This document shows positions 41,150-61,058 of a stretch of DNA of 64,000 nucleotides, piece by piece. The notes beneath the pieces are model-generated. The model made no database searches and had not been told where the DNA came from. It saw nothing but the letters and a program-made list of their open reading frames with translations. The stretch is from assembly GCA_051362555.1 (NCBI GenBank), contig CM120640.1, positions 69,790,788 through 69,854,787 on the forward strand. The letters are read 5' to 3'. Each line of letters opens with the position of its first letter. Position 1 is the first letter of the stretch. The position numbers and the translations under genes were made by a program. This stretch comes from Lingula anatina (Eukaryota; Animalia; Brachiopoda).

Positions 41150-43120
41150 TCATTTTTCCAAGTATTGGAATACTTTCACTTTCCCATTATCTTGAGCCAC
41201 AATCAGATCTCCGTCCTGGTTGATGGTACATGCCCATGGTTCATATAGTCCATGATCAGCTTTGGTTGCTATGTACTGGATGAACTTCCCATCTGGGGAT
41301 ACAAGGTGTATGCAGTGGTTATCACAGTCTGTGGCCATTATGTTGTCATATGCATCAACACAGACACCACCTGGTCGACCTAACTTGTTATCAGGTCCTG
41401 TGTACTGATACAGTGGGTCACCAGATGGATTTAGGATGTGAAGTTTCTTTTGTGATATTTCACTGACAATAAGGCAGTCATTGCTCATATATGCCACTTT
41501 ATATGGTATATCGAACAACTGCTTCCCATCTTTGTTCTTTATCACATCAGTTAAAGTTATTTTCCCTTTAATATCAATACTGAACACACTCACAGACTTT
41601 TCTTTATAACCCTGTGCCACAGCAATCTTCGTGCAGCTGTTATTGAGAGCAACACCACATGGGAAGTTGACATCTACAGTTTGCTGCACTTCCCTCTGTG
41701 GTGACAGGATGAACAGTTTGTTATTGTTGGCACCAGATAGAACCATCCTTCCATCAGGGAAGTGACAGATCGCTGCTGGCCATTCCAACTGTGTGTCTGA
41801 GACACTTGTGATCTCTTGCTTTGAAGTCCCATCTGAACTAAAAACCTTGACCTTGTTATTATTGTCATGTGCAGTAACATACTCCATGTTTGGACTCACT
41901 GTAATGCCCACCGGTTTCGAACAGCCAGTGTCAAACTCCAGCATACATTCAGCTTGTGGTTTGATCTTGGGCAAAGCTGGCTGTCTCGATATCTGCACAT
42001 TCCCCAGGCCAGCCCCACTGGATATCTCTTGGTCCACTTCTGTGTTGGTGGTGAGTGTGAGTTTTAGTTCCTCTGGAACAACATCCACAGCTGAACTGGA
42101 CTGTAGCTCATCTAGTCTCTGTCCAAGTTGATGTTGTAACATGAGGACATCTATTAGAGCACCCCGCTGAAGGATGTTCTTTACTACATCTGTTGTAGTG
42201 TTGATAGAGGAGCAAGTGGCACTGCAGTTTTTGCGGGAAATTTGTAAATTATTTCTGTGAGTGCTGGTGGTTTGATGAAGCTCCTGTAGTAAGGTATTCT
42301 CTCGTTGATCTACCAGTTGACGTAGATGAGCTGCACGAGCTTTGATCTTCTGCTGAACAAAGCTTTCATTTTCTTGGAGAGTTGCCAATATTTCATCAAT
42401 TTTAGCTATTGTTTTCTCTCCCTTTTCAATTTTTTTCTCCATGCCACAGTATTTGGTCAGAAGTTGTGGCTTTACCATTTCTGCAGCTTTTTCAAGAGAG
42501 ATAAGTTTGTGGCCATCATGGTGTAGATCTTTGCAGTCACGACAAATGGGGACATTGCAGTCTGAACAAAAGTATCGTATCATCTCACCTTTGTGCTCTG
42601 GGCAGATAATTTTCTGCTGCTCTTTGATCTCTCTTTGGTGCTCACTGCTGTGAAGTTGTTGAAAAGTCAGCACCTTGTGGTCTTTAGTGAACTTGGTACC
42701 ACAGTGAAATGGAGAACACCTCTCACATAGGTAGTCATGGCATGTGATGCATTTTGAAGTAGCCACTGTTTCTGTTTGGGACACCAAAGCACAAGAGCTG
42801 CACTTTTTTTTATGTGTTGACTGAAGTATAGTGTCTTGTAAGCTTTCAATAAAGAAATTGTGAGTAAGGCCCTCAAGTCCATCTTTAGGAACTTCAGTTT
42901 CTTTCTGACACACGGGACATCGTAATTTACTTCCTGGTGTTAAATCAGAAATATAAGTCTTCAGACAACCCTTACAAAATGTATGCCTACATGGTAAATC
43001 TGTTGGGTCCTTATACTCCTCAAGGCACAAAGAACAGCTCACAAAGTAGTTAACTATTTCATTTCTTAAACTTTCTGCTTGCGGACTTTCAGTTACATCT
43101 TTAGAGTTTGCGGTCGCCAT
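41150..43120 (-). CDS. TRIM-NHL E3 ubiquitin ligase copy 2 (TRIM2/3/56-like architecture), 656 aa, single coding exon
   Basis: C3HC4 [22 protein letters not shown]-box1 [18 protein letters not shown]-box2 CPEH..FCSDC..ICRDC..HHDGH; coiled coil; NHL repeats (PVGITVSP, PAAICHFPDG, PCGVALN, PYKVAY, PGGVCVD, PWACTIN). Confidence 0.92.
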   Translation of the reverse strand: MATANSKDVTESPQAESLRNEIVNYFVSCSLCLEEYKDPTDLPCRHTFCKGCLKTYISDLTPGSKLRCPVCQKETEVPKDGLEGLTHNFFIESLQDTILQSTHKKKCSSCALVSQTETVATSKCITCHDYLCERCSPFHCGTKFTKDHKVLTFQQLHSSEHQREIKEQQKIICPEHKGEMIRYFCSDCNVPICRDCKDLHHDGHKLISLEKAAEMVKPQLLTKYCGMEKKIEKGEKTIAKIDEILATLQENESFVQQKIKARAAHLRQLVDQRENTLLQELHQTTSTHRNNLQISRKNCSATCSSINTTTDVVKNILQRGALIDVLMLQHQLGQRLDELQSSSAVDVVPEELKLTLTTNTEVDQEISSGAGLGNVQISRQPALPKIKPQAECMLEFDTGCSKPVGITVSPNMEYVTAHDNNNKVKVFSSDGTSKQEITSVSDTQLEWPAAICHFPDGRMVLSGANNNKLFILSPQREVQQTVDVNFPCGVALNNSCTKIAVAQGYKEKSVSVFSIDIKGKITLTDVIKNKDGKQLFDIPYKVAYMSNDCLIVSEISQKKLHILNPSGDPLYQYTGPDNKLGRPGGVCVDAYDNIMATDCDNHCIHLVSPDGKFIQYIATKADHGLYEPWACTINQDGDLIVAQDNGKVKVFQYLEK

Positions 43121-59102: not shown

Positions 59103-61058
59103 TCATTTTTCTAAGTATTGGAATACTTTCACTTTTCCATCCACTTGGGTCACAACCAGATCTTCATCCTGGTTGATGGTACATGCCCATGGTTCATATA
59201 GTCCATCAGCTTTGGATGCTATGTACTGGATGAACTTCCCATCTGGGGATACAAGGTGTATGCAGTGGTTATCATAGTCTGTTGCCAGTATGTTGTCATA
59301 TGCATCAACACAGACACCAAAGGGTCGATTTAACTTGTTATCAGGTCCTGTGTACTGATACCATTGTTCACCAGATGGGGTTAGGATATGAAGTTTGTTT
59401 TGTGATAAATCACAAACAACAAGGCACCCATTGCTTGTATATGCCACTTTATATGGATTATTGAACAACTGTTCCCCATCTTTGTCCTTTATCACATCAG
59501 TTAAAGTTAGTTTGCCATTGATAGCAATACTGAACACACTCACAGACTTTTCTTTATTATGTTGTGCCACAGCAATCTTAGTGCAGATGTTATTGAGAGC
59601 CACACCATATGGGTTGTTGACATCTACAGTTTCCTGTACTTCCCACTGTGGTGATAGGATGAACAGTTTGTTATTACCTGCACCAGATAGAACCATCCTT
59701 CCATCACCGAAGTGACAGATCCCTATTGGACCTTTTAGCTCTGTGTCTGAAACACTTGTTATCTCCTTGCTAAATGTACCTTCTGAACAAAAAACCTTGA
59801 CCTTGTTATCCCAGTCATGTGCAGTAACGTACTCCCTGTTTGGACTCACTGAAATGTCCACTGGTCTCCGACAGCCAGTGTCAAACTCCAGCATACATTC
59901 AGCCTGTGGTTTGATCTTGGGCAAAGCTTGTGATTTAGATATCTGCACATTCCCCAGGCCGGCCCCACTGGATATCTCTTGGTCCACTTCTTTGTTGGTG
60001 GTGAGTGTAAGTTTTAGTTCCTCTGGAATATCATCCACAGCTGAAGTGGATTGTAGATCATCAAGTCTGTGTCCAAGTTGGTGTTGTAACATGAGGACAT
60101 CTATGGGAGCACCATGCTGAAGGATGTTCTTTACTACATCTGTTGTGGTTTTGATAGAGGAGCAAGTGACACTGCAATTTTTGCGGGAAATTTGTAAAAT
60201 ATTTCTGTGAGTACTGGTGGTTTGATGAAGCTCCTGCAGTAAGGTTTTCTCTCGTTGATCTACCAGTTGACGTAGATGAACTGCACGAGCTTTAATCTTC
60301 TGCTGAACAAAGCTTTCATTTTCTTGGAGGGTTGCCAATATTTCATCAATTTTAGCTATTGTTTTCTCTCCCTTTTCAATTTTTTTCTCCATGCCACAGG
60401 ATTTGGTCAGAAGTTGTGGCTTTACCATCTCTGCAGCTTTTTCAAGGGAGATAAGTTTGTGACCATCATGGAGTAGATCTCTGCAGTCACGACAAATGGG
60501 GACACTGCAGTCTGAACAAAAGTATCGTATCATCTCACCTTTGTGCTCTGGGCAGATAATCTGCTGCTGCTCATGGATTTCTTTTTGATACTCACTGCTG
60601 TGAAGTTGTTGAAAAGTTAGTACCCTGTGATTTTTAGTGAGTGTGGTAGCACAGTGGAATGGAGAACATTTGTCACATAGGTAGTCATGACAGGTGATAC
60701 ATTTTGAAGTTGCCACTGTTTCAGTTTGGGACAATAAATCACAAGAGCTGCACTTTTTCTTATGTGTTGACTGAAGTACAGTCTCCTGCAAGCTTTCAAT
60801 GAAGAAATTGTGAGTGAAGCCCTCGAGGCCATCTTTAGGAACTTCAGTCTCTTTCTGACACACAGGACATCGGAATTTACTTCCTGGTGTTAAGTCAGAT
60901 ACATAAGTCGTCAGACAACCTTTACAAAATGTATGCCTACATGGTAAATCTGTTGGATCCTTATACTCCACAAGACATAATGGACAGCTGACAAAATATT
61001 CAATTATTTTGGCTCGTAGGCTTTCTTCTCCATCTCTGTCAATGTGAGCTGTAGCCAT
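59103..61058 (-). CDS. TRIM-NHL E3 ubiquitin ligase copy 3, 651 aa, single coding exon
   Basis: Uninterrupted ORF, same architecture with all Zn ligands retained; distinct N-terminus MATAHIDRDGEE. Confidence 0.92.
   Translation of the reverse strand: MATAHIDRDGEESLRAKIIEYFVSCPLCLVEYKDPTDLPCRHTFCKGCLTTYVSDLTPGSKFRCPVCQKETEVPKDGLEGFTHNFFIESLQETVLQSTHKKKCSSCDLLSQTETVATSKCITCHDYLCDKCSPFHCATTLTKNHRVLTFQQLHSSEYQKEIHEQQQIICPEHKGEMIRYFCSDCSVPICRDCRDLLHDGHKLISLEKAAEMVKPQLLTKSCGMEKKIEKGEKTIAKIDEILATLQENESFVQQKIKARAVHLRQLVDQREKTLLQELHQTTSTHRNILQISRKNCSVTCSSIKTTTDVVKNILQHGAPIDVLMLQHQLGHRLDDLQSTSAVDDIPEELKLTLTTNKEVDQEISSGAGLGNVQISKSQALPKIKPQAECMLEFDTGCRRPVDISVSPNREYVTAHDWDNKVKVFCSEGTFSKEITSVSDTELKGPIGICHFGDGRMVLSGAGNNKLFILSPQWEVQETVDVNNPYGVALNNICTKIAVAQHNKEKSVSVFSIAINGKLTLTDVIKDKDGEQLFNNPYKVAYTSNGCLVVCDLSQNKLHILTPSGEQWYQYTGPDNKLNRPFGVCVDAYDNILATDYDNHCIHLVSPDGKFIQYIASKADGLYEPWACTINQDEDLVVTQVDGKVKVFQYLEK

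Follow-up and report, generated by a model that had tools for sequence, protein, structure and literature searches.

Three tandem TRIM genes of the brachiopod Lingula anatina differ far more from one another than stretches of the host gene that were copied along with them, and the question is whether this excess records selection on the proteins or the age of the DNA in which they lie. The window, i.e., the whole stretch of 64,000 nucleotides analysed here, had previously been interpreted from its sequence alone as a case of diversifying selection on the NHL propeller.

Three TRIM genes nested in the triplicated 3' end of a host gene

The 3' end of a leucine-rich-repeat (LRR) and PDZ host gene, which we take to be of the LAP type ('LAP family'), is triplicated, and each of the three units carries one intronless RING-B-box-NHL TRIM gene (T1, T2 and T3) antisense within one host intron (Table 1). 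Spliced RNA backs the host exon joints C-D and D-E. The host exons of unit 2 contain frameshifts and one deletion, and exon B of unit 3 lacks 11 bp through a deletion and carries a 54-bp duplication as well as one insertion. Self-BLAST also detected an old segment common to units 2 and 3 (69% identity) and absent from unit 1.

Table 1. Features of the host gene, its tandem units and the nested TRIM genes (positions within the window)
Feature	Position	Strand	Remarks
Host LRR-and-PDZ gene	12142..27721	+	3' part in window; Pfam LRR and PDZ
Host LRR exon	near 12142-12603	+	Pfam LRR
Host long exon A	ends 18042	+	
Host long exon B	21982-23162	+	
Host long exon C	23383-23897	+	
Host PDZ exons	26742-26834, 27285-27359, 27602-27721 (stop)	+	Pfam PDZ
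Unit 1	17163..29881	+	native 3' end of host gene; self-BLAST blocks
Unit 2	29882..54201	+	5'-truncated tandem copy; self-BLAST blocks
Unit 3	54202..63679	+	5'-truncated tandem copy, homology traced to 63679; self-BLAST blocks
TRIM-bearing intron, unit 1	18043..21981	+	whole intron is the diverged block
Counterparts of this intron	30378-44749, 55082-61894		
T1	18690..20997	-	654 codons without insertion
T2	41150..43120	-	656 aa, open frame; NHL 41150-41965
T3	59103..61058	-	651 aa, open frame; NHL 59103-59921
340-bp element in T1 NHL	19022..19361		terminal inverted repeats of ~68 bp; ends CACTA; 3-bp target duplication
DINE-1/HINE-like repeat	18166..18627	+	directly past T1 stop codon; decayed 5' end, internal repeat, damaged 3' end
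3' end of the same repeat	21863..21917	+	well preserved; upstream of T1
Counterparts of this 3' end	44634-44688, 61787-61841		

In all three proteins, Pfam identified a RING finger (zf-C3HC4) and a B-box (PF00643), while the Cys/His pattern of a first B-box was seen by eye only and the putative coiled coil was placed by its position after the B-box. No Filamin match was obtained for T1-T3 in Pfam at E 0.001, and a PRY-SPRY domain was absent from their Pfam and fold matches. T2 and T3 retain open frames, with omega about 0.3 outside the NHL domain. In this assembly, the T1 NHL domain is broken by a 340-bp transposon, presumably CACTA-type, which reads of runs X1 and X3 cover at high depth; the orthologue of T1, P0002 (XP_013412103.1), has a 100% identical and uninterrupted NHL domain. 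The sequence-only reading, which covered 41150..61058, left T1 outside its coordinates and missed this interruption. RNA runs X11 and X14 (95% likeness) covered the T2 coding sequence in only one of eight bins, at a depth of 1.3; they come from other individuals, which may lack T2, so they have no bearing on whether it is silent.

The RING-B-box-NHL family has undergone a lineage-specific expansion in Lingula: 22 of 45 matches belong to this organism and are 40-86% identical, and the remaining matches reach 20-29%. Among 50% representatives, most matches were long NHL-repeat proteins, and three further Lingula-type paralogues came to light.

Divergence of the TRIM intron and its host flanks

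The observations that started the inquiry are partly accurate. Five motif triplets reported for T1/T2/T3 (ERPVDIS/SKPVGIT/RRPVDIS; KFPVG/EWPAA/KGPIG; NNPYG/NFPCG/NNPYG; SNPYQ/DIPYK/NNPYK; SPPPG/GRPGG/NRPFG) all occur in the translations as quoted, and host segments are nearly identical across units, with differences of 0.8-2.9% in exon B, 0-1.4% in the next intron and 2.1% in intron D-E (taken to be exon 17, intron 17 and intron 19 of the earlier numbering). Differences are also concentrated in the NHL domain, where 51-54 of 269-270 codons differ (19-20%), compared with 35-47 of 358 (10-13%) from RING to linker. However, the coiled coil and linker, which had been called almost invariant, differ at 17-20 of 175 residues (10-11% for the coiled coil).

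The TRIM genes are more diverged than the near-identical host segments, as claimed, but not more than their own non-coding flanks: K2P of these flanks is 0.12-0.19 on both sides, whereas TRIM dS is 0.17-0.25 and K2P of the whole coding sequence 0.09-0.12. Overall, the TRIM intron is 12-19% diverged between units, and the divergence extends past the repeat ends as far as the splice sites, host intron pieces outside these ends differing at 10/61 and 11/100 sites. Given that the whole intron is diverged, synonymous and non-coding sites included, an older genealogy is indicated, not faster protein change. Host divergence is patchy and changes in steps between about 0 and 0.17; synonymous divergence in host exons beside the TRIM intron reaches 0.08-0.17 and falls within exon B from 0.08-0.10 to 0.013. 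A local divergence peak with homogenised flanks is present at the TRIM intron, and recent homogenisation appears to have produced the near-identical host segments. The argument from near-identical host DNA to protein selection fails, and the excess likely goes back to an intron block of greater age, its host flanks having been homogenised later. More generally, the locus shows that the age of a nested gene is poorly measured by near-identical flanks duplicated along with it.

Hypervariable positions on the NHL propeller

The T3 NHL domain was modelled by AlphaFold as a six-bladed propeller with 24 strands (pLDDT 96), and Foldseek matched this model to the NHL domains of TRIM2/3/71 and Brat, the best matches being TRIM2/3 (TM 0.82-0.84). 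The top face of an NHL propeller comprises the b-c and d-a loops (excerpts of PMC4015489). Among 12 other Lingula paralogues, 32 hypervariable NHL positions were found: 27 of the 75 positions in top loops, 5 of the 137 in strands and none of the 55 in bottom loops (p 6e-8). Clustering on one propeller face thus emerges from the family-wide set, but not from T1-T3 alone, in which variable residues occupy 28/75 top-loop and 16/55 bottom-loop positions (p 0.35; top loops against all remaining NHL sites, p 0.048). In addition, 11 NHL positions carry at least seven different residues among 15 paralogues, compared with 0.5-3.6% per site in neutral simulations, and a second subfamily (seven proteins, ~40% identical) varies at the same positions (mean 3.1 versus 1.5 states, p 2e-9). 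On the predicted structure, the hypervariable positions of both subfamilies fall in the b-c and d-a loops. By residue count rather than electrostatics, the top loops of T1-T3 are about neutral (10 basic and 11-13 acidic residues; 6-15 and 9-13 across the 15 paralogues), and the analogy with RNA ligands gains no support from this crude charge count.

Maximum-likelihood omega is 0.66 for the NHL domain and 0.33 from RING to linker (p 1e-5), the NHL value itself being below 1 (p 0.007). At the level of the domain, dN/dS below 1 accompanied by dS close to flank divergence contradicts the proposed diversifying selection on a recognition surface; at the level of sites the proposal survives, on different evidence. 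Model M2a was favoured over M1a (p 0.004). With hypervariable sites chosen from the 12 other paralogues, independently of T1-T3, omega measured in the three DNA sequences of T1-T3 was 2.6 at 32 sites (p 2e-5) and 3.4 at 21 sites (p 1e-6), and 1.32 (p 0.14) at the loosest of three thresholds. These estimates were robust to NHL-only branch lengths and to multi-nucleotide changes, and the same selection of sites outside the NHL domain gave 0.26-0.39. For site classes drawn from structure alone in T1-T3, omega was not significantly above 1 (top loops 1.06, p 0.74; loop tips 1.29, p 0.20), and it was 0.55 for bottom loops. Recombination is known to inflate site tests, and the TRIM coding sequences are mosaic (0 of 5000 shuffles as clustered in a runs test).

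Explanations for the divergence and comparison with known systems

The reading regarded as fairly probable is that of a Lingula-specific RING-B-box-NHL family whose top-face hypervariable positions are likely under diversifying selection and whose excess divergence at this locus likely stems from an older intron block with later-homogenised host flanks. The genes would be old tandem duplicates in which gene conversion or unequal crossover overwrote the host parts many times, and the TRIM intron would escape homogenisation through selection for distinct propellers together with indels that block pairing. The proteins may act as substrate-recognising E3 ligases that combine a constrained RING-B-box-coiled-coil chassis with a variable binding face, the changing target most likely being a foreign macromolecule (from a pathogen or a selfish element), and more likely protein than RNA. 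Three observations speak against old duplicates: in run X3 the host exons have the depth of a single copy and the extra units are missing, divergence between the two unit junctions is just 5.8%, and host-exon changes unique to units 2 and 3 have an omega of 0.42-0.52, below neutral.

It is somewhat unlikely that relaxed constraint and shuffling suffice, such that redundant paralogues tolerate change in the top loops and a few codons only seem fast owing to short tracts converted from older members. When the hypervariable class is given its own rate, omega drops to a non-significant 1.33 or 1.07, although this model fits no better for the 32 sites (p 0.13) and better only for the 21 sites (p 0.027), and with the local rate fixed at 1.5x omega still reaches 1.7-2.3 (p 0.011, 0.001). 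Synonymous change near hypervariable sites is somewhat higher (10 in 32 sites versus 20 in 91). The top-loop omega close to 1, the mosaic coding sequences, the disruption of T1 and the recurrence in another paralogue of 25-29 of the 32 residues at hypervariable sites in T1-T3 also fit relaxation; yet the bottom loops, likewise exposed, hold no hypervariable position and have a low omega, the seven to nine residues found at single positions are more than neutral simulation would predict, the second subfamily varies at the same positions, and T2 and T3 remain open and constrained outside the NHL domain.

It is considered unlikely that the triplication is young and that ectopic conversion, with dispersed members as donors and possibly a Helentron-type element as carrier, replaced the TRIM blocks of units 2 and 3. 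Read by eye, the repeat at 3675-5650 has a core of tandem repeats, subterminal inverted repeats, a microsatellite, one inverted repeat on the 5' side and a stem-loop on the 3' side, all of them features described for DINE-1/HINE non-autonomous Helentrons (excerpts of PMC4067079). Repeat ends flank every one of the three TRIM genes, 45 and 59 contigs depart from the window sequence at 21917, and read depth just past the TRIM stop codon is far below that in the coding sequence. The arrangement is compatible with a TRIM block that may have moved as one element with DINE-1/HINE ends, the dispersed copies having been compared as proteins. An ectopic source would also accord with the 13 close paralogues on 13 contigs of differing length, with an NHL identity among T1-T3 (80-81%) no higher than that to dispersed copies (76-83%, proteins only), with the T3 N-terminal type shared with P0001 and P0018, with a T3 upstream flank that does not align to units 1 and 2, and with run X3. 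However, divergence passes the repeat ends up to the splice sites, and candidate donors among the paralogues found did not exceed 86% identity to T2 (whole protein) or 81% to T3 (NHL). Trees likewise did not show an ectopic origin of T2 and T3, given that AU tests in three regions retained T1-T3 as one clade (p 0.07, 0.50, 0.12).

Three deeply diverged alleles, balanced or introgressed, of a single native locus might alternatively have been joined in tandem by a recent unequal crossover, an origin that appears quite doubtful. The divergence maximum on the TRIM intron, the single copy in run X3 and the exon changes unique to units 2 and 3, which look partly purifying (29 synonymous against 36 replacement, p < 0.01), are compatible with it. 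On the other hand, run X3 shows only 15 differences from unit 1 over 2266 bases that extend across the intron flank, and the P0002 NHL domain is identical to that of T1, so no deep allele is seen in this small sample. An assembly artefact, e.g., haplotypes set in tandem, is very improbable and was rejected despite the reported heterozygosity of 1.6% (excerpts of PMC4595640) and the one copy in run X3, considering that contig depth in run X1 agrees with three units (the depth of single contigs rises from 80.7 upstream to 232.9 where exon B ends, and is 174.4 over exon C) and that its unit-2-specific contigs match with 0 differences; run X1 is possibly the source sample, and serves as a check of the assembly rather than as a second individual.

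Beyond the fairly probable reading of selected top-face sites in an older intron block, a speculative synthesis would have Lingula assembling a variable intracellular receptor repertoire from TRIM-NHL ligases, with two independently expanded subfamilies diversifying the same top-face positions, in an NHL parallel to the arms race of the TRIM5 SPRY domain, and one of them spread genome-wide inside a Helentron-type element reading past its own damaged end. A brachiopod family with hypervariable sites on the NHL binding face would by itself mean that an invertebrate can make this propeller the variable sensor of a ubiquitin ligase, with some 30 positions and both subfamilies as candidates for binding assays. 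No earlier report of a variable NHL top face or of this Lingula locus was found in the literature searched: PMC12373286 contains nothing on TRIMs, and the words TRIM, NHL, tripartite and Helitron are absent from the main text of PMC4595640.

The Lingula proteins share RING, B-box and six-bladed NHL propeller with TRIM-NHL proteins such as TRIM2, TRIM3, TRIM71/LIN-41, Brat and Thin, and with TRIM56, which binds viral RNA via an NHL-like tail and restricts Zika virus (excerpts of PMC6623546), but they have no filamin match, are intronless and are expanded in one lineage. The top face of Brat is an electropositive RNA site (excerpts of PMC4015489), whereas that of the Lingula proteins is hypervariable and about neutral by count. 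Excerpts of PMC2533329 describe TRIM-NHL proteins as conserved group 1 TRIMs and developmental regulators, and tie the arms-race role to the vertebrate SPRY group. Those group 2 TRIMs (TRIM5alpha and other PRY-SPRY proteins) likewise combine lineage-specific expansion, a constrained tripartite chassis and fast sites in the C-terminal binding domain (same excerpts); in Lingula, by contrast, the variable domain is an NHL propeller in an invertebrate, and any antiviral role is hypothetical. A parallel may also be drawn with fungal HNWD receptors (Podospora HET-D and HET-E), in which a beta-propeller sensor has a few hypervariable codons per repeat, diversifying selection on its interaction surface and concerted evolution (excerpts of PMC12222747), although these are WD40 repeats of NACHT-type NLRs homogenised within a gene, while the NHL blades belong to an E3 ligase and vary between paralogues. 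The divergence profile of the locus resembles the Teshima-Innan signature, as in the red/green opsins, with high divergence around a selected site and low divergence in converted flanks (excerpts of PMC3924837 and PMC2588116); here, however, an entire nested gene forms the peak, homogenisation has affected flanks made of broken host exons, and indels alone can stop conversion too.

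Tandem units and nested TRIM genes

The host gene, on the plus strand, comprises LRR exons and a C-terminal PDZ with a stop at 27721; its 3' part, starting within exon A, is found in three copies in the window, and in units 2 and 3 the host exons show frameshifts as well as deletions and insertions. In each unit, the intron that separates exon A from exon B holds one intronless RING-B-box-NHL gene (T1-T3) on the opposite strand. The three-unit array is real, yet not universal. In run X1, possibly the source sample itself, single contigs reach a depth of 80.7 upstream of the duplicated stretch, compared with 232.9 where exon B ends and 174.4 in exon C, and contigs specific to unit 2 match exactly. 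At the corresponding places, run X3 shows depths of 43.4, 40.3 and 44.5, indicating that this animal apparently carries one unit.

Features of the array and associated insertions (window positions)
Feature	Position	Strand	Description
Unit 1	17163-29881		copy of host 3' part
Unit 2	29882-54201		copy of host 3' part
Unit 3	from 54202		copy of host 3' part
T1	18690-20997	minus	TRIM
T2	41150-43120	minus	TRIM
T3	59103-61058	minus	TRIM
Abundant repeat	3675-5650		complete copy
146-bp tandem-array element, unit 1	23980-26587		9.9 copies
146-bp tandem-array element, unit 2	47722-51496		20.3 copies
Deletion, unit 2	29882-30369 to 30395		exon A end and splice donor gone; 21-bp tandem duplication at break
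Nested DINE-1/HINE-like copies, unit 2 TRIM intron	30692-40847		about 10 kb, both orientations; 159-161-bp and 337-bp units
Decayed relative of T1-interrupting element, upstream of T2	44330-44498		82% over 100 bp
Inserted element, downstream of T3	55585-58873		535-bp inverted ends (96% alike) around decayed Tc1-like transposase pieces (PAX/HTH match)
Palindromic insertion, unit 3 exon B	62844-63319		about 470 bp
Another, unrelated sequence	from 63680

A 340-bp element whose ends are inverted repeats, flanked by a 3-bp target duplication, breaks the NHL of T1. The public protein P0002 (XP_013412103.1) corresponds to T1 and has an NHL that is identical but unbroken. At 85% likeness, RNA run X17 gives family-level reads along the T1 CDS, only 14 of 6806 mapped reads being 99% alike; RNA run X12 gives little signal there. 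The 146-bp-array element occupies different introns in units 1 and 2, which points to two separate insertions or to one family moved within the duplicated gene.

The abundant repeat carries features listed for DINE-1/HINE elements in PMC4067079. Each TRIM has, on one side, a decayed 5' end of this repeat together with a damaged 3' end, and on the other a well-preserved 3' end in like orientation. Such an arrangement would fit capture of the TRIM by read-through of the repeat, and two separate insertions of a very common repeat would fit as well.

Age of the TRIM blocks

The sequence-only reading held that the TRIMs are far more diverged than the co-duplicated host DNA, mostly in the NHL, and took this as a sign of diversifying selection on a recognition surface. 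The observation holds in part: all five quoted NHL motif triplets occur as given, and residue differences are indeed greater in the NHL (19-20%) than from RING to linker (10-13%); the coiled coil and linker, described as almost invariant, differ at 10-11% of residues. Host segments are near-identical between units, with differences of 0.8-2.9% in exon B, 0-1.4% in the intron after it and 2.1% in intron D-E. However, reasoning from the host was partly wrong and misleads as to fast protein change, since TRIM dS between copies (0.17-0.25) is close to the K2P divergence of non-coding DNA flanking the TRIM on both sides within its intron (0.12-0.19, with many gaps).

Between units 1 and 2, host-intron stretches adjoining splice sites differ at 10 of 61 sites; between units 1 and 3 the counts are 11 of 100 and, for the 3' splice-adjacent stretch, just 2 of 51. 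Exon A shows a synonymous divergence of 0.09-0.17 between units 1 and 3; in exon B (units 1-2) it is 0.08-0.10 over the first two thirds and then drops to 0.013. The TRIM CDS is a mosaic in which the odd-one-out copy is clustered (0 of 5000 shuffles equally extreme), with T3 the outlier at 53 such sites within codons 1-150, and units 2 and 3 have in common a segment, 69% identical, that is absent from unit 1. Together, these patterns argue for an old TRIM intron within host DNA that is young in patches. They fit the divergence peak that gene conversion is expected to leave (Teshima-Innan signature; PMC3924837 and PMC2588116), although indels can also produce one. A history of old duplicates with gene conversion is preferred; replacement of the TRIM blocks by ectopic conversion and the joining of old alleles in tandem are less favoured alternatives.

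The proteins closest to T1-T3 are Lingula anatina TRIMs, including 13 close public paralogues on 13 different contigs, some possibly allelic. Mutual NHL identity of T1-T3 is 80-81%, against 76-83% with dispersed paralogues, and they are thus as distant from each other as from dispersed copies. Among the cluster representatives searched, no public protein was found nearer than 86% to T2 or 81% to the T3 NHL. Grouping T1-T3 as one clade was not rejected (AU p 0.07, 0.50 and 0.12 for three regions, with rows less than 75% filled dropped and 13, 15 and 16 rows kept). P0007 and P0019 have an N-terminus of T1/T2 type, and the coiled coil of P0007 is 93% like P0011 and only ~73% like T1/T2, which suggests that both may be chimaeras between dispersed paralogues.

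Probable selection on the propeller top face

Our codon models covered T1, T2 and T3 only, T1 being read without its insertion. Omega is 0.33 outside the NHL and 0.66 within it, so that the dN/dS above 1 proposed as a check does not hold at domain level (p 0.007 for NHL omega below 1). To avoid circularity, sites were picked in 12 other paralogues; T1-T3 themselves, P0002 and the distant P0012-P0013 were not among them. Omega reaches 2.6 (p 2e-5) at the 32 NHL sites with at least four residues and 3.4 (p 1e-6) at the 21 with at least five; it is 1.32 (p 0.14) at the 67 with at least three, and 0.26-0.39 for equivalent sites outside the NHL. M2a is better than M1a (p 0.004), positions 401, 584, 447 and 420 (T2 numbering) ranking highest. 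Omega above 1 at hypervariable sites is robust to NHL-only branch lengths, multi-nucleotide changes and a 1.5-fold local rate; a free rate for this class removes the signal (omega 1.33 and 1.07), and of the two classes that model is favoured for the 21-site one alone (p 0.027). Among 15 paralogues, 11 NHL positions hold 7-9 residues; in neutral simulations on a star tree whose branch lengths were assumed, the corresponding figure is 0.5-3.6% per site.

The predicted T3 NHL model (pLDDT 96, 24 strands) matches the NHL of TRIM2/3/71 and Brat. The top face was taken as the b-c and d-a loops, following PMC4015489. On this predicted structure, hypervariable positions from the 12 other paralogues fall at 27/75 top-loop, 0/55 bottom-loop and 5/137 strand positions. 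Variation among T1-T3 alone shows a weak contrast (top 28/75 vs bottom 16/55, p 0.35), and all top loops pooled give omega 1.06. A second, apparently partly clustered Lingula TRIM-NHL expansion (P0089, P0169-P0173 and P0106; about 40% identical to T2) varies at the same propeller positions. Its seven proteins are 71-87% identical in the NHL vs 82-94% elsewhere; positions with at least four residues number 16/76 in top vs 1/55 in bottom loops (p 0.001), and variability is higher at the first family's hypervariable positions (p 2e-9). Diversifying selection is moderately supported, by evidence other than that first offered for it.

Comparison with known systems

A search of largely open-access literature found no published work either on this group of TRIMs or on NHL propellers evolving under positive selection. 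A 2018 survey reportedly dealt with Lingula immune genes, and the TRIM-NHL expansion itself may already be in print. The top face of Brat is an electropositive RNA site, whereas T1-T3 top loops contain 10 basic and 11-13 acidic residues; by this crude measure, an RNA ligand is not favoured. The nearest analogues are group 2 SPRY TRIMs (PMC2533329), TRIM56 (PMC6623546) and fungal HNWD propellers (PMC12222747).
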